Shown here one piece after another: positions 4,303 to 63,754 of a DNA stretch of 64,000 nucleotides. The notes below the pieces were generated by a model. The model searched no databases. It had not been told where the DNA came from and saw only the letters and a list, made by a program, of their open reading frames with translations. The position numbers and the translations under genes were made by a program. The stretch covers positions 38,008,001 to 38,072,000 of the forward strand of contig CM119372.1 in NCBI GenBank assembly GCA_051294905.1, read 5' to 3'. Numbering within the stretch: position 1 is the stretch's first letter; each line of letters starts with the position of its first letter. Source of the DNA: Botryllus schlosseri. Lineage: Eukaryota.

Positions 4303-4422
4303 GTCAACTAAGGTCATTGCCAGTCGACTTGGACTCATCTGCTAGCATATCGGAAACGGCTTTCGAATCTGAGTGTAGTGACGCACGCTCCGACAACCAG
4401 ACAGAAAGTAACTTTTCTTCAG
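4303..4422 (+). CDS. Gene A (domesticated piggyBac transposase), acidic N-terminal exon copy 1, phase 1-1
   Basis: Acceptor ttctttcAG|, donor CAG|GTaaat; 120 nt; encodes GQLRSLPVDLDSSASISETAFESECSDARSDNQTESNFSS; homologous to the next two exons and to the QLRSL start of exon 2 in gene B. Confidence 0.7.
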
Positions 4423-4439
4423 GTAAATGATCTGTAGAT

Positions 4440-5598
4440 TGGGGTTGCCATACGTCCGGAATTTCCCGGACATGTCCGGAATTTCACTGTTCAAACTAGC
4501 GTCCGGGAGGAATTTCAAAAATATGCCAAATGTCCGGAATTTTGAAGACTTGACGTACGCTCATAACTTTTTCGTAAATCAGCATAAAAACAATATTTTT
4601 TCGGGAATATTTATGCTGATGCATGACATTTTTCTTCGCGCTGCGCGCGATTTACTGTAACATTTATTGATTTCAATATGAAGACTACCACCCTCGCAAA
4701 AACTGCAATAAAATATACATAAAAACAAAACCTTCATTTACTGGAATAAGCCTAATTGTAATCGCAATTATAGGAGAACGGTATATTCCTAGAGAACGTT
4801 AAGGCCGTTTAAATGCTCTATTCAAAGATAATGGTTCCAAACGGTTGGTCGTTTGCCTTTATTCTGGCGCTTGCGAATATGTTGAACGTAATCAGCTTCC
4901 AAAATAGCCCGCGAGTAAGTCTGGGCAAAGGTGCTGACTTATTTTAGTAATCAGCTCGTCAAATATTGATCTGGGCCACGGAACACTTTCAAATTGGAGG
5001 TAGAGTCGCGACCATAAAAGGTTGGAAACAACTGGATGTTTTTTTTATAAAGCTCCCTGGTGCGCACCGGCAAGTTGCATAGATTACCCTATAGTGTGGG
5101 CTCAAAATCATTGTTTATTTGGGCGGGAAGGGGCTGAAAACATGTGCTTTCGGTCATGGTTACACAACACACAGCCACATACTCCTGAACCGGATCGTGA
5201 CCAGAGATGGGCGGATTCCTAAATTTCGGGATCCCAATCTATCCGGATCCGGCTGGCAATCGGAAATTCAGAGTCCGAAAAAATCCGGCTGGTGGAAGGT
5301 CCAATTCGGAATCCGAAAAATCCTGCCAGAATAATTCTAATTAATTATATTGCAGCAACAGAATCCGGCTAAAATCCGACCGTCACTGCAAATTCAAAAT
5401 CCGGATCCAGTCCGGCCAGGTACAAAAGCAATGAAATCCTGCTCCGGCTCCTGAACCGGAATGTGCCCATCTCTGATCGTGACCATCTCTGGTCTATGAG
5501 CAAAGCTTTGCTAGTGTGACGTCACTACTCATTTTGAAATCCACCAGTGGGCGCTAAAGAGTGTCCGGAATTTGGATTGCTGCAATATGGTAACCCTG
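4440..5598. mobile_element. hAT (Tip100-like ends) MITE with nested ATCCGG-rich MITE 5202-5475
   Basis: Ends TGGGGTTGCCATA and TATGGTAACCCTG, TSD (c/g)TGTAGAT. Inner TIR CAGAGATGGGC, TSD ATCGTGAC. Confidence 0.75.
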
Positions 5599-5768
5599 GT
5601 GTAGATCCAAGTAAAATGTGAAGTTACTGTAGCTGAGTATTGCCGAATCGCCCTTTTAGATTATAATAATAAATGATAATATGACTGCGACTGAAAATAA
5701 CTTCTCACTGCTCAAGCGGTCGCGGTCATGCTTCATGTTTCATGTTTACCGGTACTTATTTGCTGTAG

Positions 5769-5867
5769 GGCAGGCGCGGTCGTCGCCGAAAGACTTGGAC
5801 TCGCTCTTGAGCATGTCAGAGACGGATGTCGAGTCTGAACATGATGAAGACAATAATTGGTCGCCAG
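5769..5867 (+). CDS. Gene A acidic exon copy 2, phase 1-1
   Basis: tttgctgtAG| ... CCAG|GTagat; 99 nt; GQARSSPKDLDSLLSMSETDVESEHDEDNNWSP; shares the DLDS-x3-SET-x2-ES motif. Confidence 0.75.
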
Positions 5868-7375: not shown

Positions 7376-8413
7376 GTAAATCACTTGGCGTCAGCCTATA
7401 CTGATAGTTACTAGATCAGGGTGGCCAACCTTTTCGGTCAATTAAGGGCCAGATACAATTGATGAATTATTGTGCGGGCAACTCGAATGTCCGATTGGGG
7501 CGAACCGGATTAGGTATAACGGTTAAAGCAAGACCCATTTTAATCGATAATATTTATGTCACGAAAACTCCCTCCAAAGATCATAAAGGAATTAGGTCAA
7601 TAATATTGATATTTGTATATATTGCGGGTCGCCTCTGTTTACCGCTGCGCTCAGTTTGTAAGGACAGGACTGTATGGCGCCTGGACGTACATCGATGTGG
7701 AGGGTTTCGGCCAACATACGTCTATCATTGATCGAGTGGAAACAAATCGCGCGAAGCTAAGCGCGAAGAAAGATTTCAAGTTAAATAAACCTAACGAGAA
7801 ACATTATACTTTATGGTAATACACGAATATCCATGAAACATGTGGCTGGCCCCTGACTTCGGAACTGATATTTTAGTCATGAACATCCCAAACTTCGCGG
7901 CGAGGCTAATCAAATTGATGGTTGGCTGTTGCAAGTTCAAAAAAATTACCTGGGCGATTCATTTTTGATAATATAACTAATTTCGAATATTAACTCGTGG
8001 CCACTCGAAACCTTCTCGCGGACCAAGGGGTGGCCGCCCCTGTACTATAGATGATGGCTGAGTATACTATAGTTACCGTCGCGTAAGCCACGTTTGTCAA
8101 TTGAAATTACAGCTCTTCACCATTATTTTGCGATCTTGGTAGGCCTGTTCCACACTCAACCAATTCGGTGTCGATTTGAATTTTAAGCCCTATTGCAGAA
8201 AAATCATGTGAATACTCAAATATTTTTGGCAAAGCTTCATAAAATATATAGGAATTGGTATCCATATATACTACTAAAAACAAAACCGCTTTCAGTACTG
8301 CAAAACAAAGTAGCTCCTCAGCATTGACTTCTATGCCAAATCTTTGCATGGTCACGAATAGGCTACTACTTGTCGGACGCAAGGCATTATTATTTTCTCA
8401 ATTCATTTCTCAG

Positions 8414-10146
8414 AGATAACAAGCACGCCACCGAAGAAAAAGAAAAGGCGTGGCGATAGCACTGAATACGTTTGGGGGAAAACAGTTCCAACCGGCCGCG
8501 AACAGTTAGTGTACAGCAAAAAGTCATACGTGAAGAGCAGGACCCTGAACGCACAACCATCCGCCTTGAATTGCTTCCTCTCTCTATTTTCAGAGGAGGT
8601 AATCAAAATGGTGGTGGACATGACCAACAAAAATTATCACAGGAAAGAGAAAGAACGGATTGAAATGAGAAATGCACGTACTAAATGCGATCCTGCTAGC
8701 ACGCCAAAGAGTAGTCGACCCCACAGCAGTCCGTGGACTGATATAACTGTACCAGAAATGAAGGCTTTCATAGCTCTACTCATAGCGACTGGGTTAGTGA
8801 AAATGCCAACGCTAGCCATGTACTGGCGCAGCACTTGCGCCGCGACTAGATGCGTGGGATTCCGCGAGGTAATGGGCCGCGACCGGTTTTGCGATATTTA
8901 TCGGCATCTCCGCGTAGCAGATTTCGAAGACGAGACCAGCCAGGCGCCTTCGAACGACCAACCGAATCAAAACATCAAACGTGACAAGTTGCAAAAAGTC
9001 AGACAGTTCTCCGAGCTGGTCCGTAGGAACTGCATGGAAAAATACGCTCTCGGGAAAAACGTCGCCATCGATGAATCGATGATTGCATTCCAAGGTCGCG
9101 TTGCTTTCAGACAGTTTCTCCCAGCAAAAAGGGAGAGATACGGCATAAAGGTTTGGGTGTTAGCTGAATCGGGGACTTCGTACGTGTCAAATTTCGCAAT
9201 CTACGCCGGTAGAGAGACCAGAGACCCTCAAGCAGACCCAAACCGGAAAATGGAACTGGGAAGAGCCGTGGTGATGAGTTTGATGGAACCGTTTTTGAAC
9301 GAAGGCCGCCATCTTTACACGGATAACTTCTACACAAGCCCAGCGCTGTTGGATGAACTATACGAGAACGGCACGTATGCTTGCGGTACAGTTCGTAGAA
9401 CCAAGAAAGGCTTTCCGAAAGATCTAATCATCCAAACAACTGGCGCTAGCCGCTGCGAACGGGGTCATTTCGATTGGCTCATGTCTGGCAATATTTTGTG
9501 CTATTCGTGGTTTGACAACAGACCGGTGTACATCATGTCTACCATACATTTCCCGGATGAAATTAAAGAAGATGGCTGCACAAATGGCATGGTGAAGAGA
9601 CGTTGGAAATCTCGAGAGCCTAAAGAAGTACCATGCCCGTCTGTTATTAAAGATTACAATCGTCACATGGGCGGTGTGGATGGCAACGACCAGATGCGCA
9701 AATACTACAATCTCAACAGAAAATCACGGGTATGGTACCGCAAAGTGTTCGGCTACCTTCTAGAGATTTGCGTGCACAACGCGCGGGTTATGCTGGAGAA
9801 CATACAAGGGAGACGATCGCAGGGCATTGCGTTCAGAGAAGATTTGATCAGACAGCTTATCGGAGAATACAGGAACAAGACCGTGTCAATTCATAATCTC
9901 CCACCTCGGTCAATTTTGAAATCTCTACGTCACGATAAAAGCGAGTGGCATCTACCTAAGAGCGGCGAATACAGGGCGGTTTGCCGATATTGTTCTGAAC
10001 GCGCAAAGGCCGCCAAAGCCGACGGGGCGACGCTCAATGTCCACCGGTCTACTATCTTTTGCACGGCTTGTCACGTTGCTCTGTGCTTTAATGGGTCACG
10101 GGAATGCTTCCGGTACTATCACGAAGAAGTGAAATGTTGGCCCTGA
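8414..10146 (+). CDS. Gene A terminal exon: piggyBac-family transposase (PGBD-like) with intact DDD triad, NLS and C-terminal Cys-rich domain
   Basis: Acceptor catttctcAG| in frame with ORF 8509-10146. Begins EITSTPPKKKKRR (SV40-type NLS). Motifs VAIDESM (D at 9070), YTDNFYTS (D at 9322), YNRHMGGVDGNDQ (D at 9679 and 9688), GTVRRTK. C-terminal CRYC..CTACHVALC..CFRYYH. Confidence 0.93.
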
Positions 10147-12369
10147 TACGTTTCGACGGTTTATTGAAGGTCAAAGGCAATTGTAGATCTGCGTCGTTTA
10201 TTTTATTTCGATGCTGACAAGCAAAGCACATAATCCAGTTAGGTTTACCATTTTTTCGTAGCTTAAATTCCGGACACTCTTTGGCGCCTGCTAGTAGCAG
10301 TATGAACACTTTGTCTGTCGATATGACGCCACGCTAGTATTGCTTTGCTTTTCGACTGAATACAGACTGTAGTCGATTTTCAAACATAGATCCCGAATTA
10401 ACTAGGCTGTAAGGCCTGGTGGTTACTTACTAGAGTTGATAATCTCATATGGTCTGACTTCTACCGTAACATGCAGCATTCCTTTTGCCGCTTACTTTTA
10501 TAGACTATCTTTTCTTTTATCCTGTGTGCACGCGTCTTATGTACATGATGTAGGCCAAGGTGGGTGTCTGATTAAAATGATACTCCAAGTCGTTTCGGTA
10601 CCTTCCTATCCTTTCATTATATCGCAATCTTGTGTTGCTTATTCAACCAGTCAATGAAATTTATGTAAATAATACATCGTTGTCTAATGTCGTGATTTGA
10701 TATGTTTATTGTATCATAAAAACTAAATTCGTGGTTGCTACTGTAAAACTTGTTGATAAGGTGATAGAATGGAGAACATTTAAAAAGTATAGAAACCCGT
10801 TTCACTCTCTGCCAGTGTTGGGATCAAGTCACTACCTTCGAGTCACGAGTCATCTCTGCAGATTTTGACTCGAGTCAAGTCAAGTCACTCGATTTTCAAA
10901 GATGACTCGAGTCAAGTGAAGTCACCCGATTTTTGAAGATGACTCGAATCAAGTCGAGTCGAGTCACTAGTCGAGTCAAGGTGAATTTTTAAAGTACGAT
11001 ACGTTATTGAGGGTCATTACATTTTGCTAACTGTTTTACAGATGAGGTCCCCATTTATTCTAAATCGAGGAACGAATAAAGAGTTGATTATACACGCAAT
11101 AAGGCGCTCTATCGCTCATGCATAGGCTACGTAGAAATGACAAACTACGCAATTATAGCGGTATAGCCTCAGTCTATAACAGGGGTGGGAAAGCTGCGAC
11201 TCGCGAGCTGCATGCTGTTCTTTTGAGTATTTGATTGCGGCTCTTCAATTAGTGTGCAATGTGCATTCGGTGATATTGAATGTAAAGTAAGCCAATGTGC
11301 CTTTTCCGTCAGGATTCGCCCAACATTAGTCACAAAGCTAGAATTTAAACGTCATTATGAAACCAAACACCAAAACCTTAATTGCCAAGAGTTACCCCAA
11401 AATACGTATTTACGAAGTATTATGATTACCGTGCTCCGCACTGTTTGACGTCATATCAGTTCGATTTCAAACACCTTACAGTCTAGGTGGAGACGCATCG
11501 TCTTATACCACACAATAATAAACTTCATTCGATACGCAGCATTTCCTTGTGACGGAATAAATTGGTATATATAAATTTTAGTGTTGTGACTCTTTTAAGG
11601 CAACGATTTTTGATATGCGGCTCGCGCCTGAACCAGCTCTGCCCACCCCTGATCTATAATTATCAGCCAAAATATAGGATAACATATATGAAGCATCAGA
11701 AAGTTCAACAAAATGATATGGAGCAATACCCTACCCACATATATATCCATGATATACAATTATTAACGTATGGAGTGTTACGTGGGTTATTGTATGTATC
11801 ATGATGATGCTTCCCTGTAAAGTACCAAGTTATGACGTCATGCCTTACCCAACTGTGCATGACCGCATCACTCGTGCTTGACCGCTTCATCTCTTATCTC
11901 ATCTTTGGTTGATGGCACATGGAAGACCACTGTGATTCTATTAGAATTTTTGGCAGAAATCCGTGATCGGGTGAATCATGGAAATATACTCGGGTGTCAT
12001 GACGTTTTGTGCTTTGGAAATTACATCGGCATATCCGGGAACCTCTTGCCAGACTATTTTTTGGTGATGTATTCAACGACAAATGCATGTAAACGACGGT
12101 TTTCGGGTGTATTTCCGGGTATAATGACGTAAGAACAATTTTAAGAAGACGAATGGATACCTACTACGCAGCCGTTTGACTGAATATTTTGCAGAGAAAT
12201 CGCCAGAAATGTGTCGATGATAACGCTCAGCAGACCATGTCTATCGACAATCCTTGGGGTATAAATATATTTCGAAGAGTGCGAGAATGGCTTGACACCG
12301 GCGGCAGCTACAAAGAATCATCATTTTCCCGAATATATGATCACGACGAATAGTAGAACACTTTTTTAA

Positions 12370-13597
12370 AAGATTTAGGCTCCAGACTCTACATATATCT
12401 CATTAGAATCAAATTGAAATCGGATATTTTAAAAATTTTGATAATCCGGACACAATTTTGGCCCCAGTTGGACCCTTGGGACGTCGACTTGAATAATAAT
12501 TTTGGTCTCGATAGAAGCGGTCAGACTAGTAGAATCCATTTCAAAATGAATTAGGCTTTGGACTCCACATATATCTCATTAGAATCGAATTGAAATTGGA
12601 CATATTCGAAATTTCAATAATCCGGACACAATTATGGCCCCAGATCGACCCTTGGGACGTCGACTTGAATAATAATTTTGGTATTGATGGAATCGGCTAG
12701 ACTAGTAGAATCCATTTCAAAAAGAATTAGGCTTCGGACTCTCCACATATCTCATTAGAATCGAATTGAAATCAGACATTTTCGAAATTTTGATAATCCG
12801 GACACAATTATGGCCCCAGATCGACCCTTGGGACGTCGACTTGAATAATAATTTTGGTATTGATGGAATCGGCTAAACTAGTAGAATCCATTTCAAAAAG
12901 AATTAGGCTTCGGACTCTACATATATTTCATTAGAATCGAATTGAAATTGGACATTTTCGAAATTTCATAATCCGGACACAATTATGGCCCCAGTTGGAA
13001 CCTTGGGACGTCGACTTGAATAATAATTTTGGTCTCGATAGAAGCGGCCAGACTAGTAGAATCCATTTCAAAAAGAATTAGGCTTCGGACTCTACACATA
13101 TCTCATTAGAATCGAATTGAAATCGGACATTTTCGAAATTTTGATAATCCGGACACAATTATGGCCCCAGTTGGACCCTTGGGACGTCGACTTGAATAAT
13201 AATTTCTGTCTCGATAGAAGCGGCCAGACTAGTAGAATCCATTTCAAAAAGAATTAGGCTTCGGACTCCACATATATCTCATTAGAATCGAATTGAAATC
13301 GGACATTTTCGAAATTTTGATAATCCGGACACAATTATGGCCCCAGTTGGACCCTTGGGTCGTCGACTTCAATAATAATTTTGATCTCGATAGAAGCGGC
13401 CAGACTAGTAGAATCCATTTCAAAAAGAATTAGGCTTCGGACTCTACATATATCTCATTAGAATCGAATTGAAATTGGACATATTCGAAATTTCGATAAT
13501 CCGGACACAATTATGGCCCCAGATCGACCCTTGGGACGTCGACTTGAATAATAATTTTGGTATTGATGGAATCGGCTAGACTAGTACAATCCATTTC
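12370..13597 (+). repeat. Tandem array, 7 x 176 bp (left foldback arm)
   Basis: ACGTCGAC anchor at 12481, 12657, 12833, 13008, 13184, 13360 (TCGTCGAC variant) and 13536. Confidence 0.95.
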
Positions 13598-14252
13598 TGT
13601 GAGAGCTATTAAGGTGATTAACATTTAAAAAGTGGTGTTCCGCGAATCACGCAGCCTCATTCTAAAATCGGAATATGACGAACCCGTACCAGGATGGGGC
13701 TCGTTCACTTTCGGACCAAAAACCATTTTTCTCCGTAAGGATGTACTGATTTTGGTCCGAAAGTGAACGAGCCCCGTAGGTGCGTGAATTACATGTTCCG
13801 GAATCATCATCCGTAAGTGGAAGAAAACATTATAAATTTTGACATTTTTCGTAGATTTTTGACTTGCTTAAGCTAAAACAGTCCTCCAAATTAGTATCAA
13901 TGATCGTGGCTTAAGGTTTTATCAATATAAAATCCCTTAAAATAACAAATTCACTATGAGACTAGCGTCTTTGCATTGAGAAACACTAGAAAATGCCAGG
14001 TTGACAATTTTCAACGTGTGTGCCGATTAAGTTTCCTTAAATCCCTGTGCTGATAAGGGTTAATACGCGAACATGGCAAATACACAAGACATCGCCATGT
14101 TGATGCTCTGCTTCTAGTAATATCTGAGGTGTGCTAACTGTCGGTGATTCAGTATGTGAGACAAAATCAGCTTTCACCATTGTGTCCAAAACATTATTCA
14201 GGTTTGTTGTCTTGGCGTAAAATCTCTTCTGGTGAATTAAACTACAAATGAC

Positions 14253-14777
14253 TAGGGCTGGGCAAAATCGAGTACCTGAGTGATTCGATTCTGAATCACG
14301 TAAAATGCTTCGAGTCAAGTCGAGTAATCGAGTATCACTCATTATGACGTAATAGCAAAATATTATTTGTCAAAGTTCAGATATGTACCTTTTAAGCGAC
14401 CACAAAGAATATAATGCCTGTTATCCATCTGTTATCCACTTTGTTATTTTTTCGACCATACCGATTTTATTGCACTTGGTGACAATATTGTGGGATGATC
14501 ATGACTTCGGAAATGTGCTATTTCCAGTAACGTTCGTAGCTTTGTACTTCATGTTTCGCATGCTACGATACGGCCAATCAAGGTTTCAAGGCTTCAACAG
14601 TGAAATTAGCATAAACTCGTTGATCGTTGATAAACTCCTCGTTGATAAATCAACTTTCAGTGGTGAGGAGCGTATAATTTTAGTACTCGAAAAAATCGTC
14701 TTTTACTACTCGACTCGAATCATTAAAATTAATACTCGATTCAGATTCGAGTACTCGAATCATTGTGCCCAGCCCTA
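14253..14777. mobile_element. hAT MITE (TIR TAGGGCTGGGCA)
   Basis: TSD CAAATGAC. Older family members at ~24560-25340, 38935-39360, 41895-42290 and 52330-53390. Confidence 0.85.
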
Positions 14778-17700
14778 CAAATGACTAACCTACGGAGGCT
14801 AGTTAGGCTATCTAATGAAACAGGGAAAGTTTGAGATTTTGTCATTGCGTCTGGGCAGAGGAACGGCACCTTTATTGTCGCACCCTATCTGAGTGGCAAA
14901 CCAATAAAAAAGTATGATATACTTTCGGTTGCGCGATACACCCGCTTGATAAGCACTGCGGGTCTAGCTAGTCTACTCTACCGACATTCTCCATCTCCTA
15001 CTTTTAGTACGAGATAGGCTACTAGTCGACCGCCTTCGCACCAGTTTTACGGCGTAACAATAGACTTATACGACGTAGGATACTTTATATCGGGGCAATG
15101 CCGCATTCTTTCCAAGCAGTGCTGCACTGCAGATTGGAACTCATTACGAAACGGCGGGCCGTATTCTTTTGGTAACTAATTATTTCGTCGCGGGCTGGAC
15201 ATTTCGCTGGGCGGGCCGGATCCGGCCCGCGGGCCGTAGGTTGCCGACCCTTGGGCTATCGACTGCGTCACAGTGATTCTGAACCGGGTGCCGATTAAAC
15301 TGCTCGACTATATCTAGCTAGAGTAAGTGGTCCGACGGCTCATACTGCATCGTTTTCTCATGTATTTACACAATTATGACATCCAGCCTTTGAAAAAAAT
15401 CATTTTATACACGTTTTGAACAAAGTGTTTTGAGACACTTCATATTTTCATTTTTTTCAATTTAAAACAACGCCTGATTAGAGGCGTATAGGTATAAAAT
15501 ATAGATCCATAAATCGCGTAACATTACATTATGCATCATCCTTCCTGTGCCGCACTGTTGTAAAAGGGCCCTCAAACAATGTATCTATCAGTGCTGGGAT
15601 GACTCGAGTCATGACTTGACTCGAGTCAGACTCGAGTCACCTTTTTCGTTTGACTGGGCCTCCATTGTTTTCTCACAAATAAAGTGACTGCAATCGAAGT
15701 GATCGAAGCTTACAGCTTACGTTGTCGTAAACTAGTAGTAAAGTAATTTAGTAGCAAAATTAGCATTTCTGTTCTCTGTTCTTACCTTAACCAAACGGTT
15801 TAAGGAGATTAAATTCGAATATATAGTTTAAATAGTCCTAAACCATTGGCACAGGCTCGAATTGTATCATATCAATTTGTAAATGGATAATGTATTGCAT
15901 ATCTTATCAATTCGTTTCTCTATTCTGTATTTTCTATTTTAGCTGGTAAGTATAAACTGAGGCTGTGCAATTACTTACGTGGTTTAATCGTTCTACGTAT
16001 ATGTGAGCGATACAGCGCCTTCTTGCATGTACATTTAACTCTATTTTCGTTCATCGGTGCGGAATCAGTGACCACTCAATCTGTATTTCAGACAGCTCGC
16101 AAAATGCAATGACGTAATCATGCCCATACTTCGAAAAGGCAACTTGACTTGAATTGTGACTTGGCTCGACTTGGCTCGAGTCACTTCCAAAAATCGATTG
16201 ACTTGACTTGACTCGAGTCACTTTTGAAAATAAATTGACTTGACCCGACTCGAGTCGAAATGTGCAATGACTCGAAATGACTCGTGACTCGAAGGTGGTG
16301 ACTTGATCCCAACACTGGATCCCTCGGTAACTACCGCGCGGGCTGGAGATCTCGCATCAATTTAGATGCGCCCTCCACTCCTGACTGCACTCAACATTGC
16401 GACTCTGACTGACGACTCGCTCCGGCTACCGTCTCTCATGTGAGTGAAACTGTGATTTCGACTCTGAAGTCTGAAACCGACTCCCTAAGGGCAAAAAATG
16501 TACACAATTCTCTGCTTCAGCTATACGCCCCCCGCGTTGCCTCAAGAATTGCTGTCAATAGTTCTTCTTCAATAACAGTGATTCTCAAACTGGGGATGCA
16601 CCCCCTTTGCAGGCGTCAAATCATCTGAAGGGGGTCGAAGCCATTTGAGAGAAATTATCATTCTTGAATTAGGAATGAGTTAAACTTGTACTGAAACCTT
16701 CAAGTTTTAACAAGAGTGGCAATATTCCTAATAATCTGATGATTTTAAATGTCATAGTTACGTCGTCGTGCCATCCACACACCGCTGATGGATTTTGTCT
16801 GACACCAGACCTTGAACCGATCATAAAATGTATTGTCTGAATTAAAAGTAGGCCTAAATGGTGAAAGCGTGAAGCTGTCAGCTCAGTGGTTCTTATTAAC
16901 CCTTACCAAGCCGCAGAACCCACGGAACACGCCGATTTGGAGACCTTCACGGAACCCCAAATTTCATTAATACAAATATCTATCATAATACAACACAATA
17001 CAGGGGAAGCGAGTGGCGCAGTGTGCTAAGCATTACAGTCCCGACACCAATGATTGCTGTTTGTAGTCTCGGCTCTGCCGTGTTTCTATGCGTCTATCTG
17101 GGCTCCTCGGCGCCTTCACAAGCCCAGATGAAGAGAGAGACGAACTAAAGAAAGCCAAGCCGCCAGCAAAGACCAGAAAAAGAACGGCGAAGGAGGAAAA
17201 AACCGAAAAGACACGAACCTTATAAAATTACCGTGAGGGTGCATTTGACCGAAGTGTTGATAAGCGCCAATCACAACACACATTCAACTAAATCTAATAC
17301 ATTAATCATGGTTACCATATTTCGGAAATCTGAATAGAGGACAGATCTCCAAAATATTCAGACTTACAATACCCGGAGTAAAATCGGGAAAAAATGATAA
17401 ATTTTTCCCGACTTTGTGGTTAGTTGACTTTAAAAAAGGTCATTTTCCGACTTGGCTCCAGAAATTCAGACTTTTGTTGAATTCTTCGTTGATTGACTAA
17501 AATAGACAAAAATGTCGACTTTCCAGCTCAGCTCCCGGCATGTCCTCCGGAACGTTACTCCGGTGCCGATGTACTGTACTTCAGTCGAATTTCACCCTAT
17601 ATTTAACCATAATTCGCCAATAAATAGGACAAAATCTAAAAAAAAGGACATTTGGGCGTCCTCCTGGGACACTTTCAAAATAGTCAAAAAATAGGACAAA

Positions 17701-50339: not shown

Positions 50340-50359
50340 CTGAAAAATAAATGGACGTA

Positions 50360-53160: not shown

Positions 53161-55273
53161 ATTTCCACTAATGTGCGTGGCATTGTACTACATGTATTGT
53201 ATGTTGTAATATGACGACTCGAAAGTTCGCAGTCTTCCACAATGGTCATAAATGCTATCGAAGCTTTAATTAGTAGTGGTATGTTAATTCATAGCGGCAA
53301 TGATCATATAATTTTTTCCACTTCTCGCCTCGAATCATTAGAATTAATCTTGGTTCAGACCAAAGCACTCGACACATTGTGTCCAGTCACGGGGTTCCTT
53401 TATTTTCTACAATGCTCATGAAAAAGGAAGCTAATGAAACAAGTTGATGAAAAGCTTGCTTGATTTTTTCATTAGCTTGTTTCATTAACCTCATTAGCTT
53501 ATCAGTAGCTTGCTTGATTAGCTTCATTAGCTATTCATTAGCTAGTTTCATTAGCTTCCTTTTTTCATTAGCTTCATTGTACAAAATAAAGGCACCCCAA
53601 TAAACGTGTCTCCTTATGCGTATAGAAGTGCGGTTTCCGCATTGTGATTATTACGGCAAAAGTGTATTTTCTTATCCAAACAAGAATTGTTCCGCATGAC
53701 CATCGTCAATCAATACTCCCTATCAACATGTCAAAAGTTATGTTGTTTCACATTATAATCAACTATGTTCACCACAGAACTCAAAATTTGGCAAATCGTT
53801 GATATCGTTGAAGATCACAAGTATACAAGTCTAGTGTTGTGAATGCCACTATGACGTCCTTCGCCCCAACCCGAAATGAAGCAATTATAAATACGTGGAT
53901 CTGGGATGCGCATATATCAAGTTACATGGAGAGCCCAGTTGATGATCACATGAAATAGGTCTACCGTAAATTAGGACATATTCATGGGAAATATTGATAA
54001 GTGATCATCATAGGAACACTTAACTAGACACATTGTTTAATGTTTACCCACTCCAAATCATTTAATATCATATTTGTGCCAACAGAAGGAGTTTGTGAAT
54101 CATATAAAAATAGTAAATTGAGCCTAAAGCAGGGGTGTCAAACATGCGGCCCGCGAGTCTCATCCGACCCGTGAAGCGATTCTGAGTAGACTGAAAAATA
54201 CTTGTATTATATTATGGTAAATTTTTAACAAAATATGTCCTATGAATATTACCTCAAAATAGCTAATGTTTAGAATGTTCATATGTCATTGTCATATTAT
54301 AACCAACTGACAGCAGTGTTGTGATTTCATTCCAGTCACCATTACAACAAGTCGCTGACATTGACACAAAATTCCGATAAGGCAGAGTATTCAGAGTTCT
54401 CTGGAAAAAGGGATCACGAAGTAGCTGTTTGCAGAAGCGAAAACGCCAATGTGAAACCGTTATATGCGGGTTGCATAAAAAATTTAATAGTTACATAAAA
54501 ATAAAATAAAGTTAAAATATGTGGTTGCACTGCTTAATCAGGTTAAGAGGGCGGCCTCCAGAGATAACAAAAAAACGAACCAAATTCCAACGTCCTCTCG
54601 TTGCCAGTTAAATACTTTGTATTACAGACAACGCATAACCAGGACCGACGCCATATTGCTATTAAAACAAATCGAGCATAAAAATATGCCAACTTTGATC
54701 GTAGTTGGTCGTCATTGGTGCAGCGTTTTACAACTGTATTCAACTGGCCAGTCCCTTTATATTTGCCACTTCCGTTGTTTGCGAATAAAGGTGTTGCTAG
54801 AACCCTTTTAATCGGTAGGCTAATATAATCTAGTACGTACAAGTTTTATGCAGGCCTATATAGGCTTGATAATAAAGTACTCAAGGCAAAACAAGTAGTC
54901 TACATGGATTTTGCGGTGACAATTTCGAATCATTTAATTGGTCTGGCCAGCGAGCGACCTCAAGGCGGACCGTATCTGTTTGCCTCGATTATTCAAACTT
55001 TAATACCGTTGACATCAAATTTGTTGATACGAACGCTGAAATAGGCTGCAATGTTACTTTTAATTTCCTTATCCCTAATGAGTGTCAGCAGAAACTATTC
55101 GGGTTTATTTCAATATGAATATATTATTCAGTCATATATTAAATTTAAATTGATTGAAATTTGTTGATGATGCCATATACTTTATTTCGAACACATCTTC
55201 AAATCATTAATCAGAACAGAGTATTTACCCATTTTGACGTATATCGAACTGAATTGTCAACAGAGAGACTTAC

Positions 55274-55364
55274 TTCGTGTCAAAAGCTCCTCATCCTCCA
55301 CAAAGTCTTCCTCAACATCAGAACATAGATCGGCGTCCCCAGCCTGTGGGTAATGGAACTCCAT
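55274..55364 (-). CDS. Gene D first coding exon
   Basis: ATG at 55364; MEFHYPQAGDADLCSDVEEDFVEDEELLTR; donor GTAAGT. Confidence 0.8.
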
Positions 55365-56517: not shown

Positions 56518-58229
56518 CTAAAACTGGTCAAAGGTTTCGTCTACGTGGTAACGCTTAAAGCATTCTCGCGCCTTGTTCACACATAGAGCCACGTTACACG
56601 CACTGCAAACATGAAACGACCGGTATATCACGAGAGTAACGCCTTGGGTTTTCGCGGCAGCTTTTGCCCGCGCCATGCAATATCGACACCAAAGCCTGCG
56701 CCCTTCCGAAATGGTCGTAGGCAAATGCCACTTTCCCTTATCCCGACGTAGCAGGTCAGAGCTGACACGAGGCTGGGAATTGTGGACTTGCCTGGACTTG
56801 CGTTCGCCAACAAGAGCAGTGACCAAACTTTCTCGAAACAGGATACCGTCGCGTACCTTGTCAGGTTGTAAACTCTCCCACAAGACCCGCGAATTGTGCA
56901 CGCACACCTCCAAAAGGTACCCAAATGCTTTACGGTACCACTCCCTACATCTCCTGTTGAGATTAAAGTACTTGCAGAACTGACTATTGCCTTCGATGGC
57001 ACACATGTAACGTTGGTAGTCTTTCACGAGAGAAGGGCACGCCACTTCTATGTACCCTTGACGCCTCCAACATATTTTTACTGTGCAATACGTGCTTTGT
57101 ACGTCACCTTCTTGATCAGGTAAATGTATGGTAGACATGAAATACACAGGCTTTTTGTCAAACCACGAGTAACACACAATGTTTTCGGACATACGCCAAT
57201 CGAAATAACCTCGGCTGCAAGATTTTTCTGCAGTAGTTTCGATCACCAAGTCTTGCGGGAAGCCGGTAATGTTCTGCATCACAGTACCGCACGCGTAACT
57301 GCCATTATTGTATAGTTCCTGTAAAAGTTCCGGGCTCGTGTAGAAGCTATCTATGTAAAGATGTCGGCCCTCGTTCAAAAAAGGCTTCATCAAACCCATC
57401 ACCACACCCCTGGCGATTTCGGACTTGTGGCTCACGTAGGTCTGCGGATCGCGCCCCGCATAAAATTGAAAATTACACACGTATGATGTTTCCGACTCTA
57501 CCAAAGTCCAGATTTTCAAGCCGGTCTTAATCGACTGCCTATACGACGAAGGGTGGCCACGAATCGTGATTCGACCGCTAATCGGTATCATGGCCGCGTC
57601 GATGGCTACGTCCCTGCCACTCGCGTACTTATTGATGCAGTTTCTGCGAATAATCTCGGAAAAATTCCTGAATTTTTCTAACCCATTTAGCGGCACAGTC
57701 TGATGCGTCCGATCGGGTTGAGACCCTACATTCTCGTTTTCGGTAGAATTCACTTCATCAGGATCAGTGAGAGAGAGGTTCTGATAGATCATCTCAAACC
57801 TACGCATGCTCATGACCTCGCCAAATCCTACAGTTCTGATTATGCGACACGCTTGCCGCCAGTACATGTGTATTTTCGGCAATTTCACCATGCCCATGGC
57901 GATTAGCAGACCGACAAACGCCTTCATTTCGGGCAAGGTGATCTCGGCAAACGGGGCTTTGTGTGATTGTGCGTTTGTGTCTCTTTTTTTACCACGTCCT
58001 TTCTCTTTTTGTCGATAATTTTTGTTTGTCATGTCCACTATCATTTGCAAAGCGTCCTCGGAAAATAGCGAGAGGAAGCACTTCAAAGGGGAAGGCTGCT
58101 CGAGCAGTTTTTTACACTTCACGTGCGGCTTAGTGCTGTGAACTATATGTTCGCGGCTTGTCGGGGCACTTTTTCCCCATTTATATTCATCACATCGCCT
58201 TTTTTTCTTCCGGGGTGGTTCGTCTGTTT
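56518..58229 (-). CDS. Gene E exon 3: piggyBac-derived protein (D-D-E)
   Basis: Acceptor tttttcAG| at 58231-58230, in frame with ORF 56518-58122; ETDEPPRKKKRR; VAIDAAM, YIDSFYTS, YQRYMCAIEGNSQ. Spliced CDS 2013 nt (670 aa). Confidence 0.9.
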
Positions 58230-60394
58230 CTGAAAAATCAATTGATTCAATTCAGATAACTTCAGTCGCACTATATTTTCTAGAAGTGGTTGACAAAATT
58301 TTTTTGAGTGCATATGCCGTCCTATCAAGCTTGGCATATATTTGTTGAACCCCTAAAATCAAGATGTTGTCAGCGACAAAGAATTTTTATTTTCCGTACA
58401 GTACGCAAGCAGGCTTTGTCTACTGTTTTATTTGCTCAGGAGTTTTGATTGCATGCTAATTTTACTTTGACAACTGTTTACTGCAAAATCACCAATCAAT
58501 ATAATCAATATTGTCAAGTGTAGTAGTTGTTTGATGCACTTCAACAGCACATTGCTACGAAGTAGCTGGGATGAGTCTAGCTTCGAGCCTCTTTTCTATC
58601 GGCATCCATCAAATATTGAATTAGAAAGACTCCAAACAGTTGACCCTCCTTCCGCGGCGAGCTCATGAATGAGCCCGGCTCAGTTTTAGACGAACGCACT
58701 TCCCTTAATCCAAAATATCTTGCGTTCTAGTGGTCATCGACTGTTACAGTTATTTTGTATGGATAACTTTATCAATATCCACACAGTGATATGTATATGA
58801 ACTACCAGTACCATTTCATCGTATACCCTGTTCAAAATGAAGAATGAATACAGAAAAACGGTTCCCCAGTAAAATCAATTTGCCTGCGACGTTCACCTGA
58901 ATGGACGCATATCACATAAGCCAGAGTATTTTCCGTTCTACAAGTAATTAGCAGTTACAGTTGTCTTTTTCGAATAGTTTTTGATCATAGAGTCTAGTGA
59001 AACCATTATTTTGAAAGTTAATCGTGGAGAAGATGTCTCAAAGTGATGTGAAGTATGTACGGAGAGCGTCAAATAAAGTCATATATATTCACCTATGATT
59101 GCCTTAAGCAGTTGAAAATTACACATATAGTTAGATGGGGTCCATACCACTTCAACAAGATCATTATCATGGAGTTTGATCTTGTATAAGTTACCCAGGC
59201 GTCAGTGCTAACACTGCACAAATGGGTGGTGAGCTACCCCAAGTATTGTACCCGCGCTTGTAATAACAACATCATACAGACAGTTGTATCATTAATTTTA
59301 GTTGTCAAACGCAGTTACTATTGACTTCAATGAATAGCTGTATCACTTATATGAAATATTGGTCGTGTGGAAGATGTTTCAAATTGATATGAAATGAATC
59401 GATACTCGCGTGTGTGTCAGTGGTATCAAATAAGGCAATATAGATATATATTACGATGGCCTTATGCAGGTGGAAATGACACATATTATGATTAGTTGTG
59501 TATGATCAATAGGATCCATAAGACGTATATATAACATTGGGTTTGGCCTTGTATAAGATAATCAACGTCTGCAGGCAATACCAATTAGACGCAAATTACA
59601 AGGAGCATAGCCTCGCGTGCTGCCTTTAACATGATGATGTAATCTGCTCAGCCAGCCGTGAGTCACACCTATCATAACATCCTTCCAATGTTGGTGTGGT
59701 CGACTGAGTAAAGCTATCACACCCAGTGAAGACTTGTTTGAAAGCCGAAATACATGTGTGAGACAACCATGTGGTCTTTTACCAAGAGAAGGATTGTGTA
59801 AGATATGAGGAGACAACGAAAATCAAATTTCTCTTTTATTTTCAAGAAATCGCATAGAATTCTTCGAATAACACCACACCATCGACTCTCTCATGTGAGC
59901 TTTCCGAGTCGCTCAGTTGGTTAGGCTGCTGTTTTCTGGTCACTGTGATATATCTTGCGTGGGCTACGTGGTTCACATTTATGAATTTTTAGGTTGACAC
60001 ATTGAAATTTGGACTGCACGAGGTTTAATAAAATAAAACTGACTGAAAGTTACCGGTACAACATTTTGACCCCCAAATCGCCCCCTTTCTTAGTTTTTTC
60101 GCCCTCTTTACTCTCAGAAGTGTCCCTCCCTCTTTGTTGGCTATGTCGCCCACTTTGACAACCACTGTTTGGAATACATATAAATCTTAAATGTTTACAG
60201 GGGTTTCTAAACTGGTGGGCCAGAGAGCATTTTCCAGCTTGGGCCCCACATACTAGGCCATTTAGAAGTTTGCGATACCGTTCATCAAACTTTAATCCTG
60301 TGTACGATATTTCAATTCAAGAATGTGGCTGGCCAAATACCATACTTTAAAACGAAAGCAATAAATGGCAGCTGACGTGCAAACATTTTAAATA

Positions 60395-61687
60395 CCCGTA
60401 AACCGGGGTAACTTTGGACAATTTTCAACAATTTCGCTGTATATATATCTTGGAAATGCTAGAGTGTAGGGGAGACAAGTTTTGTGTGTTTCCAGGGGTT
60501 ATGGAGCAAAGATTAGAATTAACTAATCCAAAATCGTCATGGTCATAAATAAGTACCTTATTTTTGTAAATTGTCCGTGTCCAAAGTTACCCCGGCATGT
60601 GGGGTAACTTAGGACAATGTAGTTTTTTGGTTTGTCTTTACACTCTATTGTTTATGAAACCTCGTAAATGAGGAGAGAGTTGATAAAAGCAGTGGCTGAA
60701 ACTGAAACAAAATGGTATATGTCTGGCCTATTGCATGATTTTTATCTAATCCCCCCCCCCCCGCCCAAATAAAATAAAATAAAACATTATATATGTAGTT
60801 GATGAAGGCTAATGCCCCCTTATTCATCCCTTATCTCAACTCCCCTCATGTCTTCCCCAATTGGGACTTATAATAAACAACATATGGTGATAAGGGGGTA
60901 TCCCACTGACGGTGTCAGCAATCGACAGCAAACATTAAGGGTCGCCTGTTACCGTGATTTATTGCTGATTTCAAATATTTTACTGTTCTTTAAAAGATGC
61001 ACATTCCCTTTCCTATGTCCTCTGATGGATATATTTTGTTGTATTTACGGTATGCCATATTCAGCAGGCGTATCTTCAAGAGCATATGATAAGTTTTCAA
61101 AGTAGTTAAAACCCGATTACGATCTCTCGGCTTATTGCCTACCCATTTTTTCATATTTTGGCAAACTCTTAATTTATTAATCTTCTCATTCCATTTTAAA
61201 AAGCCATCAGGCAGGTCATAACGAATACAGTTGACGATACACTTTGACAGAGATGGAGCAGCCCCCCAGAGCTCTAAATATCAAATTTTCCACTGTCTAA
61301 AGTTACCCCGTTCCGATGACATTTGAGGGGGTAACTTTGGACATCACATCTTCTTATATTGATCTACGGGTGAGCCCACTAAGATTTCTGCCGCGGATTA
61401 AGACTACTTAGAGGTATCTGCTGCCAAGTATTAAATCTATGACTCACATGCAGTCAATGTTTGGTTGTAAGAATTTTAATAACCATCAATCTTAATGAAA
61501 TTGACCCACGCCATTAATTCATCAATGTTGGGTCAAACAAGTTTATCTGGTAGTGAAACGAATCCACCTTTTATTGAGACAACTTGTGGTACTGTTGCCT
61601 CACGAAAAAGAATTGGACATCCAGCGGCAACCTTTTTCCATCAATAACCATTTAAATCCAAAGTCCAAAGTTACCCTGGTTTACGGG
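60395..61687. mobile_element. pogo/Tc1-like non-autonomous element
   Basis: TA|CCCGTAAACCGGGGTAACTTTGGAC...GTCCAAAGTTACCCTGGTTTACGGG|TA; internal copies of GGGGTAACTTTGGACA. Confidence 0.8.
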
Positions 61688-62308
61688 TACGCTATATACA
61701 CCACGCGATTTAGACGCTGGTGATATCTGAAAAGTAAAGAATTTTGTTTATTTCATAATTTTACAGCTGCTAAATACCATGGTGATAGATTCATTCGATT
61801 CCAAGATTTGCTGATAAGCAACAGTGTCGTAATTGATTCCAGAATCTTACTGACCAATTAGGCTACTTCCTTCATAGGGTTACCATACGTCCTTCCTTTT
61901 CAGGAGGAAATCGAAAATGTTCTCCAAGGACGCCTAAATGTCATCATTTTATGCAAATCGTCCTCCTTTACAGCTTTGACAGCTAGGCTAATGGACAGGG
62001 TCAAGTGAAAATCGCCAGGAATGACGCGAAATACGTAATGCGGACGTTCCAGCGGGTCATTCGGGTGTCAAATCAGAGTGATGTTCTTACTTTTTTCTTG
62101 TCAACACAGCAAGATTTTCAGTAAATATTGCAAAATCAGCTGTTTTCAATTTCTGTAAACTATATAACTTTTATGCTTTGATAGTTAAGTTTCCTCCTTT
62201 GCCGATTCCAAAATATGGTAAACCTATTCAGTTAGCAACATTGATACGGTTTGCGACTGGCGCCCACCCATAATACCGCATAAAGTTACTAAAAAAATAT
62301 TCATAAAC

Positions 62309-62518
62309 CTGGAGAGAAATCATTGCCAGAGTCACTATCCCTATTTTCCCAATGTGTCTTTTCCTCCAATTGTGAGTCCGCGTCCACATCACATTGTCTC
62401 TCTGCCTCATGATGGAATTGTACTAGCGTTTCCCCATAGCATTGTGGCTGTGTCTCATCATCAAATTCATCACATGTGCTGAATGGGGGCAATTCAGCTG
62501 GCATTAATCTCAGCTGTC
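62309..62518 (-). CDS. Gene E exon 2 (acidic, most divergent), phase 1-1
   Basis: ctatttcAG| ... CCAG|GTttat; 210 nt; QLRLMPAELPPFSTCDEFDDETQ...DSDSGNDFSP. Confidence 0.7.
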
Positions 62519-63663
62519 CTGAAATAGGAATAAGACGTTACTTGGCACTGGCATATGCACCAGCTAGTAGCCGCATTGCTACAGGAGAAGAAAGTTTCTA
62601 TTTATTATATAAAAATAAATAGCAAAAAATTTGAAAATTTTCTGTTCACCCCATGAAAGTGTTAGGTTGTGTATAGAAACGATGTTCACCAAATTTGGTT
62701 CAATTCCAACCAGTGGAAGCGGAGTTATGACCGTCGAAAAATTTGGATTATGAATAAAATCGTATTTACGGTGACCAATTCTTTAATTATTTATTCTAGT
62801 GGTGCCCACCATAAATACTATTTTATTTAAATCCAAATTTTTCGACGGCAATAACTCCGCTTCCACTGGTTGGAATTGAACCAAATTTGGTGAACATCGT
62901 TTCTATACACAACCTAATACTTTCATGGGGTGAACAGAAAATTTTTTGCTATTAATTTTTATGTAATAAATAAAAACTTCCTTCTCCTGTAGCAATGCGG
63001 CTACTGGTCGGAATTGAACCAAATTTGGTGTATAGGCTTAAATTAGGTAACCTAACGATTTTATCAGGTAGCCAGTACGATTTGAGAAAAAAAAAGTCAT
63101 TTTTGAAGAGCCCTAGTGTACCGTATATAATCAAGAAGACGAGATAAGAGGCAAGTTTTCGTTAGTTACTTATGGAGAGGACGTATGATAACCCTAAAAT
63201 TAGTGATACCATGACATCATGAATTTAAATTGTGACGTACCGTTACAGTTGATTGACACGTATGGCACTTTGGGACTTGAAATGGATAAAATAGGCCGCT
63301 TATGGCTCTTCGGGGGAAAAGGTTCTCAAACCATGCTGTACTCAGTGATTCGGAATGGGACTTGACTCGATGGTGAATTGAAAATGACTAGACTTGAATC
63401 GAGTAAAAACAATATAAGTAAGATTGACTTGTGACTCGGAACTTGTGACTTGGTTACAACCCTGATTGTAACTAAGAAATAACCGGAGATGTGCCATTAA
63501 TTTTAAAAGCAATCGAAGAAAAAAGTTGCTAATATTTATTGTTGACGCGATATGTTGTTTGGAACGCATCTTCAAATCATGCACACGACATAATGTATAA
63601 CATTATGCTGTTAACCCATTTTGATGTAATCAGACTGAATGTTAAGTCAGCAACGAGACTTAC

Positions 63664-63754
63664 TTCGTGTCAACAGCTGTTCACCCTCCAAAAAGTCTTC
63701 CTCAACACCCGAACCGAGATCGGCGTCTGCAGCCTCTGGGTAATAAAACTCCAT
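63664..63754 (-). CDS. Gene E first coding exon
   Basis: ATG at 63754; MEFYYPEAADADLGSGVEEDFLEGEQLLTR; donor GTAAGT. Confidence 0.78.

Follow-up and report, generated by a model that had tools for sequence, protein, structure and literature searches.

Seven tandem piggyBac-derived genes in Botryllus schlosseri form a probable host family with two active-site classes

When several open piggyBac transposase genes lie side by side, they may be ordinary copies of a mobile element or genes that the host has kept, and neighbours with different active sites raise the further question of what each kind can still do. Both questions arise in the window analysed here, a 64,000-nt stretch of the Botryllus schlosseri assembly GCA_051294905.1 (CM119372.1, positions 38,008,001–38,072,000, forward strand). 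A preliminary description had reported five open transposase exons in it, and its observation as a whole was confirmed. A six-frame stop-to-stop scan found exactly five ORFs of at least 250 aa, which are the five exons described: 8362–10146 on the plus strand (gene A) and, on the minus strand, 25376–27181 (gene B), 39370–41091 (gene C), 48628–50505 (gene D) and 56518–58251 (gene E). All five proteins matched the PF13843 DDE_Tnp_1_7 model (E 9e-84 to 2e-67).

The predicted models of genes B–E have three exons each, the first of 91 nt with the ATG, the second acidic and 210–231 nt long and the third a large one of 1700–1712 nt, with joined frames of 670–677 aa and no internal stops. On the minus strand, these exons lie at 36077–36167 (MEFHYPQT...LLTR, donor GAA/GTAAGT), 28220–28447 and 25376–27081 in gene B; at 46974–47064, 41574–41804 and 39370–41069 in gene C; at 55274–55364, 52013–52243 (close to exon 2 of C) and 48628–50339 in gene D; and at 63664–63754, 62309–62518 (strongly diverged from B–D) and 56518–58229 in gene E. 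Gene A, on the plus strand, is modelled as 687 aa in four coding exons, likewise with no internal stop. Its ATG exon lies outside the window, 199–310 bases to the left (−310 to −199), and its acidic coding exons 2 (4303–4422) and 3 (5769–5867), each preceded by AG and followed by GT in phase 1, correspond to the single acidic exon of B–E. The large exon of A (8414–10146) encodes an NLS-like PPKKKKRR motif, the DDE_Tnp_1_7 domain and a C-terminal Cys-rich domain, and ends in the stop codon. All introns in the window models are GT..AG and phase 1, so that the claimed in-frame splicing to conserved acidic exons holds for these predicted sites. Of the limits first given for the cluster, position 4303 is the first base of coding exon 2 of A and position 63754 belongs to the ATG of E.

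The window holds five members of a head-to-tail array of seven genes, the other two (Y and Z, both DDD-intact) lying just to its left. All seven members have in common an intron preceding the PP(K/R)KK motif and carry exon-1-like and exon-2-like sequences upstream, and the large exons of Y and Z are likewise free of stops and frameshifts. The gene units measure 7–11 kb each, with introns in common and homologous flanks; downstream flanks, intron pieces and upstream exons recur among the copies in the same order. The common flanks and intron pieces indicate that duplication was local, and the flank homology indicates that divergence occurred in place; for D and E, the flank identity of 82% equals the synonymous-site identity (1−pS = 82%). 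Gene D itself looks like a chimera, its 5′ part resembling C and its 3′ part resembling E. Dozens of transposable-element insertions had been described in the introns and spacers. A spot check of this description identified one 1.27-kb dispersed repeat in intron 2 of E (at least 40 scored copies among 3235 first-look candidates). Word depth was also very high over stretches of the A–B spacer and in the intron of B, which points in the same direction.

Over their core, the proteins A and B aligned to solved structures of piggyBat and of T. ni piggyBac (PDB 9c0f, E 6e-39 for A and 2e-31 for B; PDB 6x67, E 5e-26 for A and 3e-14 for B), and the active sites were read in T. ni numbering, in which the catalytic triad is D268, D346 and D447, with D450 in addition. 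Gene A retains D, D, D and D450. Genes B and C have D, D, E, N at these positions and genes D and E have D, D, E, S, with the changes D447E, D450N/S and N347S common to B–E and a further change from DE to DA after the first Asp in gene E. At the position of the third Asp, 251 of 261 public homologues have D and one has E. There is a real division between a DDD-intact class I (A, Y and Z) and a class II of four co-altered paralogues (B–E), and reading the residues in the alignment upheld the claim that B–E have a co-altered core with the NLS and zinc ligands retained. The statement that one gene is catalytically intact holds within the window, where A alone of the five has the complete DDD and D450, but does not hold for the array, in which Y and Z are also intact.

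Outside the active site, the KKK/R motif is invariant across A–E, and so are seven Cys/His columns in the zinc domain at the C-terminus (C541, C544, C567, C570, C575, C582 and H587, P0001 numbering). B (31.7 bits) and C (27.5 bits) were the only proteins to exceed the 24-bit cut-off of the PF13842 zinc-finger model; A scored 19.7 bits, and D and E gave no match at E ≤ 0.01. Because an NLS-like motif, a whole transposase core and a zinc C-terminal domain are all kept, the cluster most likely encodes nuclear DNA-binding proteins, as judged from these motifs. Class I proteins, which keep every acidic active-site residue, can probably still cut DNA. For class II, the part of PMC2533014 drawn on here gives, from a single T. 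ni assay, an excision frequency of 4.4e-5 for D447E and 1.4e-5 for D450N, compared with 1.4e-2 for the wild type. Since single changes like those of class II cut T. ni excision more than 100-fold, B–E probably cut poorly or not at all. Other transposase families do include active enzymes with a DDE triad, which counts against this reading. The class II pocket is altered yet conserved, which suggests that it still serves some role, such as metal or DNA binding or an altered chemistry.

The array members are under purifying selection as immobile copies. Pairwise dN/dS (NG86), which speaks for pairs and not for present selection on every single copy, was 0.22 for B–C, 0.36 for D–E, 0.25–0.30 between the B/C and D/E subgroups, 0.19 for A–Y and ~0.13 for A–B. 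Values among copies, at 0.13–0.36, are therefore well away from the 1 expected of neutral relics, and neutrality was rejected in one-sided binomial tests (p = 3e-22, 2e-8 and 6e-32), including for D–E, the most relaxed pair (p = 2e-8). Exons 1 and 2 also showed pN/pS below 1 in 12 of 12 pairs. In class I, every acidic active-site residue is kept under very strong constraint. In B–E, the segment around the third Asp ranks among the most constrained, with pN/pS-based ratios of 0.07 (B–C), 0.11 (B–D and C–E) and 0.28 (D–E), while the zinc domain and linker are the parts most diverged between subgroups (pN 0.35–0.55). Synonymous divergence among members spans 0.2–1.3, and none of the seven large exons contains a stop.

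The absence of flanking TTAA and terminal inverted repeats was also upheld. Scanning 4 kb around whole genes and 3 kb around large exons for TTAA-flanked inverted 12-mers with at most two mismatches recovered such ends at none of the seven array genes in either scan, whereas the same script recovered them at 3 of 12 other piggyBac loci of this genome. The nearest mobile relatives, elements C4 and C14, begin at TTAA followed by CCCTMCTCCCGCGGTCGGCC, a terminus with 77 occurrences in the genome (39 forward, 38 reverse) against 0 for a reversed control. Of these occurrences, 38 are exact 24-mers, which suggests recent activity of C4/C14-type elements; the window contains no match to this terminus at three or fewer mismatches. 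The C4 element (29071165 to about 29074116, ~2.95 kb) carries an uninterrupted 702-aa ORF with DDD, a canonical left end of TTAA + CCC... and a degenerate right end. The mobile elements of this protein clade (C4 and C14; loci L008, L009 and L038–L041) resemble the cluster in clade, and the acidic N-terminus of C4 is homologous to cluster exons 1–2, but C4 has a single ORF and a terminus that recurs through the genome, whereas the cluster genes have introns, lack such ends and stay put. The C4/C14 transposases are 47–49% identical to A and 37–40% identical to B–E. Across the whole genome, no match to A beyond the array was better than 49%, compared with 52–67% within it, and no second copy of any array member was found elsewhere. 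Identity to A does not exceed 67% anywhere in the genome, which rules out a young family, and many dispersed, near-identical copies with terminal repeats, the pattern that would mark these genes as ordinary transposons, were not found genome-wide.

Transcripts were sought for genes A and B in three raw RNA-seq runs (1.1–1.9 thousand million letters read from each, tissue and stage unstated). The large exon of A had depth 0 in all bins and that of B had bins at depth 0–1.2, and no junction reads for either gene were found, so that the anticipated spliced, co-expressed transcripts did not appear in these runs. A fourth run, labelled ‘RNA?’, behaves like DNA, since its coverage was as even over silent spacer as over exons.

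Among public proteins, no orthologues of A or of B–E were found, the best matches being 50% identical to A and, in an exhaustive search, 47% identical to C. An 83%-identical counterpart of Z (P0006) is present in another organism's data, so at least that split predates a speciation. With the best foreign matches to A and C at only 50% and 47%, cross-species conservation is shown for Z alone. The closest named sequences are Styela clava proteins annotated in NCBI/UniRef as ‘piggyBac transposable element-derived protein 4-like’ (P0007–P0014), which are 36–41% identical to A over 94–97% of its length and group as the sister clade in phylogenetic analysis (SH-aLRT 94). Their acidic N-terminus is of the same flavour as that of the cluster, but five of seven tabulated active sites are D, D, D, D450, D450N occurs in one, and Glu is absent from the third site in all seven. 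Lineage-specific expansions are seen both in this genome and in Styela clava.

Known sets of domesticated piggyBac genes provide two points of comparison. In the part of PMC6143343 drawn on here, Paramecium has one catalytic Pgm and five PgmL groups that bind it, and the Tetrahymena set comprises Tpb2 with Lia5, Tpb1, Tpb6 and Tpb7. Like the array, these are multiple piggyBac-derived host paralogues retained by selection, with the zinc C-terminal domain kept and intact-DDD and altered-triad members mixed. The host here, however, is an animal (a tunicate), and its genes lie close together in tandem. The same source states that all three aspartates are missing from PgmL1, 2, 3 and 5, that PgmL4 keeps two, and that the PgmL catalytic domain evolves fast, whereas the pocket of B–E, with two aspartates retained and a conservative Glu, is under strong constraint. 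Of the proposed PiggyMac/PgmL-like architecture, the pattern of an intact gene beside co-altered paralogues is present, but the altered class itself is unlike the PgmLs. Vertebrate PGBD genes and Xenopus Kobuta are, like the array, piggyBac-derived, without terminal repeats and under purifying selection, and PGBD5 is interrupted by introns as the cluster genes are (PMC3902484 and PMC5381638, in the parts used here). In contrast to the seven-gene family, PGBD groups are described as single-copy in the portion of PMC5381638 cited, and the nearest named proteins to the cluster are ‘PGBD4-like’, not PGBD5. The relevant parts of PMC3902484 and PMC5381638 report piggyBac ORFs of Ciona and Oikopleura only as intronless.

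If these genes were ordinary piggyBac copies or immobile relics that happen to lie together, their frames would have been left open by past selection for transposition. Mobile relatives in the same genome, the expansions here and in Styela clava (a pattern typical of transposons too) and the lack of transcripts of A and B in three runs would fit, but terminal repeats are absent from all seven genes under a scan whose positive controls worked, the 7–11 kb head-to-tail units have common introns and homologous flanks, the synonymous divergence of 0.2–1.3 was gathered in place with no stops in the large exons and with neutrality rejected at p ≤ 2e-8, and no member is duplicated elsewhere. We find ordinary copies hardly credible, disfavoured as they are by the absent terminal repeats, the in-place divergence without stops and the lack of copies elsewhere. 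Scarcely more probable is a once-domesticated family that has fallen silent and begun to decay, with selection lying only in the past. The zero RNA depth on A and near-zero depth on B would agree with it, as would the youngest pair, D–E, having the highest dN/dS (0.36) and the loss by E of the Glu after the first Asp; set against this, the five window models and the Y and Z large exons have no stop or frameshift, D–E is still removed from neutrality (p = 2e-8), and relatives that are truly decaying (C6, C11 and C17) do carry stops. Domestication is supported by the missing terminal repeats, common intron positions, local duplication, open frames with dN/dS of 0.13–0.36 and lack of any copy more than 67% identical to A, and the claim that these are host-retained genes stood.

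Host-retained genes of two classes could work as a PiggyMac/PgmL-like machine, in which class I would cut and class II would supply architectural or targeting subunits of one complex for programmed or somatic DNA excision. To our knowledge, ascidians have not been reported to eliminate DNA in a programmed way, and this, together with the lack of RNA reads for A and B in three runs, counts against such a machine. Its appeal lies in DDD-intact and co-altered paralogues standing side by side under selection, in a zinc domain and linker that are the most diverged parts, as expected if subunits target different DNA, in the precedent of Pgm with its five PgmL groups, and in the dimer or higher-oligomer habit of piggyBac transposase, which makes mixing of paralogues plausible (PMC6143343, in the part drawn on, citing earlier work for the oligomers). 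The highly constrained pocket of B–E, with two aspartates and Glu, is nevertheless unlike the PgmLs of that account, and we regard the machine as unlikely. Another possible but less likely reading is a transposon-control family, in which proteins of class II, and possibly of class I too, would repress or channel the transposition of mobile relatives and of their short derivatives by binding the element ends or the transposase; an arms race would then account for the tandem amplification and for the rapid change of the zinc domain. In this genome the nearest relatives are genuine elements with TTAA and CCCTMCTCCCGCGGTCGGCC ends, whose 77 termini with 38 exact 24-mers suggest recent activity, the class II changes cripple T. 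ni excision (PMC2533014, in the part used) while the DNA-binding domains are kept, and the zinc domain and linker are the fastest to diverge between subgroups. Less favourable are an identity of just 37–49% to the C4/C14 transposases, the lack of expression of A and B in three runs, and the retention of three DDD-intact genes, which transposon control leaves unexplained.

Taken as a whole, the likely explanation is that the window contains five genes of a seven-gene, two-class tandem host family derived from a piggyBac transposase. An ancestral copy would have lost its terminal repeats, and would have carried or gained the phase-1 introns that split off the acidic N-terminus. Tandem duplication and unequal crossing-over may then have expanded it at the same site, with D as a C/E chimera, and every copy would since have been retained by host-level purifying selection. 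The class II proteins would most likely be non-cutting partners or competitors of class I, of the still-mobile related piggyBac elements, or of both. A bolder scenario, which we think very unlikely, is a chordate with a ciliate-like piggyBac team, in which cutting-competent A, Y and Z and B–E with their re-tooled, conserved D-D-E pocket would jointly cut or excise DNA in a regulated way at TTAA-type sites, whether in the germ line, in embryos or in certain somatic cells; were this true, animals would have arrived independently at programmed DNA rearrangement by domesticated transposase heteromers. A partner or competitor role for class II, if true, would imply that TTAA-type elements are controlled or used, rather than a proven ciliate-style excision machine.

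When the 64 kb were scanned from stop to stop in six frames, five open frames, and no more, reached 250 aa. Frame A (8362–10146) runs on the plus strand; B (25376–27181), C (39370–41091), D (48628–50505) and E (56518–58251) run on the minus strand. PF13843, the core domain of piggyBac transposases, is recognised in each of them (E values 9e-84 to 2e-67), and they can be aligned with two solved transposases, T. ni piggyBac (6x67) and piggyBat (9c0f). The best named protein matches are 'PGBD4-like' predictions from Styela clava (36–41%), and the genome is treated here as being of tunicate type. Protein identity is 54–56% between A and B–E, 83% for B/C, 85% for D/E and 66–70% between the B/C pair and the D/E pair. 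A usable start ATG is absent from all five long frames, each of which is immediately preceded by a pyrimidine tract and AG. An acidic exon is conserved 5' of B, C and D (61–69% aa identity), with a diverged version at E; its GT donor is in phase 1 and allows an in-frame join to the large, transposase-domain exon directly before the motif ETDEPPRKKKRR. A scripted search for an ATG followed by a phase-1 donor, and then tblastn, located a third exon of 91 nt in all four of B–E, which encodes MEF(H/Y)YP...VEEDF...LLTR, ends in GAA before the donor GTAAGT and has its ATG on the minus strand at 36167 (B), 47064 (C), 55364 (D) and 63754 (E). Joined by coordinates, B–E form predicted frames of 2013–2034 nt (670–677 aa) with 0 internal stops and GT-AG at all introns. 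The acidic part of gene A appears to occupy two plus-strand exons (4303–4422 and 5769–5867), its ATG exon lies outside the window, 199–310 bases to the left, and the four-exon model encodes 687 aa without a stop. These predicted exon–intron structures agree in detail with the splice models of A–E in the preliminary description, with in-frame GT-AG joins and open frames as read from the sequence, and its end coordinate coincides exactly with the ATG of E.

The window corresponds to C2:38008001–38072000 in the 495-Mb assembly, and a search of the whole assembly recovered two additional members to its left, both intact and plus-strand (negative coordinates; loci L002, L007 and L032–L035). Y (about -35181 to -23583) has a 579-aa frame 67% identical to A, and Z (about -14588 to -6493) has a 591-aa frame 52% identical to A. 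Each is preceded by sequences resembling exon 1 and the acidic exon, shares the phase-1 intron in front of PP(K/R)KK and keeps the DDD triad. From left to right the array reads Y, Z, A (all plus strand) and then B, C, D, E (all minus strand), the latter four lying head to tail with spacers of 1.2–3.2 kb. The preliminary description had recognised a cluster of five genes, one of them catalytically intact; the five genes stand, as does A as the intact gene inside the window, but the array comprises seven genes and A shares its DDD with Y and Z. The acidic exon 2 of Y is present twice, at ~-34500 and ~-28510, with near-identical peptides (ISGNLRSLPVEEDS... and ISGKLRSLPAEEDS...), which may represent alternative or duplicated exons.

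Neighbouring copies have in common, and in the same order, their upstream exons, parts of their introns and 1–2.4 kb of flanking sequence downstream. The identity of the D and E flanks (82%) equals their synonymous-site identity (1-pS = 0.82), indicating that flanks and exons were duplicated together and diverged in place. Gene D (48628–55364) is itself a mosaic, with exons 1–2 and the upstream region nearest to C (exon 2, pS 0.19) and the large exon and 3' flank nearest to E (large exon, pS 0.18). Since its exon 2 is C-like but its large exon is E-like, D resembles an unequal-crossover chimera, and the pattern would fit an exchange within intron 2, whether by gene conversion or by unequal crossing-over.

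Transposon ends were sought as TTAA plus a 12-mer whose inverted complement (up to 2 mismatches) is followed by TTAA on the opposite side. The scan found no such ends for the seven gene units (4 kb around each) or for their large exons (3 kb around each), and the positive controls gave perfect TTAA+CCCTAGACTGCT pairs ~2.45 kb apart at 3 of 12 other piggyBac-like loci in this genome. The whole-assembly search yielded no sequence more than 67% identical to A anywhere else, so the array does not have the look of many dispersed, near-identical, terminal-repeat-flanked copies that the preliminary description had named as the mark of ordinary transposons. Pairwise dN/dS ratios (Nei-Gojobori) were 0.22 for B-C (dS 0.43), 0.36 for D-E (dS 0.21), 0.25–0.30 between the B/C and D/E pairs, 0.19 for A-Y (dS 1.3) and, at saturating dS, ~0.13 for A against B, C and E. 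None of these values is near 1, and a one-sided binomial test of nonsynonymous versus synonymous differences rejected neutrality for B-C (p = 3e-22), D-E (p = 2e-8) and A-Y (p = 6e-32). Exons 1 and 2 are less constrained, but each of the 12 pairs still has pN/pS below 1. Copies that do not move cannot be kept intact by selection acting on their transposition, and we therefore read the tandem array as a domesticated piggyBac gene family. The alternative that the copies are pseudogenes or assembly duplicates was rejected, as they differ from one another by 15–46% in protein and the A exon is present in 11 runs from 5 studies.

Mobile relatives persist in the same genome. The nearest non-array relatives, named here by contig, share 47–49% identity with A: the frames of C4 and C14 are open, one stop interrupts each of C6 and C11, and C17 holds fragments. 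The C4 element (C4:29071165–about 29074116; loci L008, L038 and L039) and the C14 element (C14:5501057 onward; loci L009, L040 and L041) belong to the array's clade, and their homology begins exactly at a left end consisting of TTAA followed by CCCT(A/C)CTCCCGCGGTCGGCC. The C4 copy, of ~2.95 kb, contains a single uninterrupted 702-aa DDD ORF and has a degenerate right end. The C4/C14 terminus occurs 77 times genome-wide (39 forward and 38 reverse; 0 and 0 for a reversed-pattern control) and was not found in the window at up to 3 mismatches. This sister lineage is a real transposon, and the number of termini, 38 of which are exact 24-mers, points to recent activity of a family whose members mostly seem to lack a transposase of their own. 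A second, unrelated piggyBac family, ~31–34% identical to A, is bounded by perfect TTAA+CCCTAGACTGCT inverted ends ~2.45 kb apart at L021 (C7:21.30 Mb), L023 (C8:22.34 Mb) and L030 (C1:24.34 Mb); the frames of L021 and L023 are open (603 and 620 aa), so that these copies look like young elements.

Alignment of 38 proteins separated the array into two classes at the positions of T. ni D268, D346, D447 and D450. A, Y and Z (class I) exhibit D, D, D, D, as do the non-array C4, C14 and C6, whereas class II exhibits D, D, E, N (B and C) or D, D, E, S (D and E). In all of B–E, DS replaces DN after the second Asp and CAM/CAI replaces GGV before the third site; DA replaces DE after the first Asp in E only. 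Among 261 public homologues the third site is Asp in 251 and Glu in 1, a 357-aa fragment in which the alignment may be unreliable, and the D450 site is Asp in 246. In one assay of T. ni piggyBac, the excision frequency was 1.4e-2 for the wild type, 4.4e-5 for D447E and 1.4e-5 for D450N, and the authors concluded that residues 268, 346 and 447 specifically have to be Asp (PMC2533014). By analogy with this drop in excision, class II is probably a poor cutter. The catalytic segments of class II are not relaxed: the pN/pS-based ratio of the altered-site segment is 0.07 for B-C, 0.11 for B-D and C-E and 0.28 for D-E, equal to or lower than those of the other domains. Divergence between the subgroups is greatest in the linker and the zinc domain (pN 0.35–0.55); even so, neither the basic KKK/R motif nor any of the seven zinc-ligand columns varies.

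Conservation across species is seen for Z only. P0006, a protein from a foreign organism, shows 83% identity to Z, next to which the tree places it (SH-aLRT 100). The best match of A to a foreign protein has 50% identity. For C, 1.84 thousand million representatives were searched exhaustively; the best match there has 47% identity, and P0006 matched C with an E value of 8e-138.

Four runs were mapped to 8390–28389, a region spanning the large exon of A, the spacer, the large exon of B and part of the B acidic exon; three raw RNA-seq runs were read to 1.9, 1.1 and 1.5 thousand million letters. In these three runs the RNA depth was 0 in every bin over the A large exon and 0–1.2 over the B large exon, and the mapped region gave no junction reads for A or B, so the spliced transcripts anticipated in the preliminary description did not appear for these two genes. 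The majority of mapped reads fell on repeats. The fourth run, X3, whose label 'RNA?' was a guess, covers the unique spacer (depth 3–7) as well as the exons (5–9) and thus behaves as DNA, and a run search with the A large exon returned no RNA run among those carrying it. At 21737–21902, two runs exhibit a large RNA read pile (bin depth ~150 per direction) of nearly all partial fits; this segment, which has no Rfam or tRNA match, is probably a fragment resembling an abundant transcript or expressed repeat. RNA and DNA records join ~17640–17690 to ~24990–25130 (a backward jump of ~7.4 kb, with 148 reads from run X20), which suggests two copies of one repeat flanking the spacer, right downstream of the B stop codon.

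Elsewhere, 28 further ORFs (110 aa or longer), taken from the window and from the sequence to its right, gave no recognisable neighbouring host gene in Pfam; the sole weak match, at 19613–19954 in the 15-kb A-B spacer, is a retroelement integrase-core fragment (PF00665, 29.2 bits, cut-off 32.6). Rfam and tRNA scans gave no match in the window. A 1.27-kb dispersed repeat lies at 60396–61658 inside intron 2 of E, with 84–87% identity to copies on many contigs (at least 40 scored copies; 3235 first-look candidates).

The basic motif suggests nuclear localisation of the array proteins and the zinc domain suggests DNA binding; class I is predicted to be competent to cut, and the chemistry of class II may be impaired or altered. 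The best reading is that class II proteins would act as non-cutting partners or competitors, that their counterpart would be class I or the mobile relatives, or both of these, and that TTAA-type elements would thereby be controlled or used; any partnership between the two classes is putative. Functionally, the closest known systems are Pgm/PgmL of Paramecium and the Tetrahymena Tpb/Lia5 set, and the ciliate-style excision complex put forward in the preliminary description would be a special case of the partner-or-competitor reading. We consider this special case improbable. Class II, whose catalytic segments stay constrained, also differs from the PgmLs, the majority of which retain none of the three aspartates and whose catalytic domains evolve fast (PMC6143343).

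In kind, the array comes nearest to the PGBD genes of animals. Vertebrates (PGBD1–5, Kobuta) and ciliates are known to have domesticated piggyBac genes. A 2017 survey (PMC5381638) calls its PGBD groups single-copy, and for Ciona and Oikopleura both it and the PGBD5 paper (PMC3902484) report intronless piggyBac ORFs only. In contrast to these groups and ORFs, the array is intron-bearing and its seven genes were multiplied in place. No description of such an array was found in the limited literature covered, which concerned tandem PGBD paralogues and piggyBac in combination with the names of tunicates or ascidians. Tandem expansion, introns and a conserved D-D-E(N/S) subclass are unusual for a domesticated piggyBac family.

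Three features set the array apart. A family of the tunicate lineage acquired or retained introns and grew to seven genes in place; it divided into two classes, one intact and one whose D-D-E(N/S) pocket is rare and conserved; and mobile relatives with 77 recognisable termini persist in the same genome. The array offers a compact natural system for the fate of a transposase active site after domestication, in which one may ask whether the altered paralogues are partners, competitors or repressors, and whether an animal applies such a team to its own DNA.
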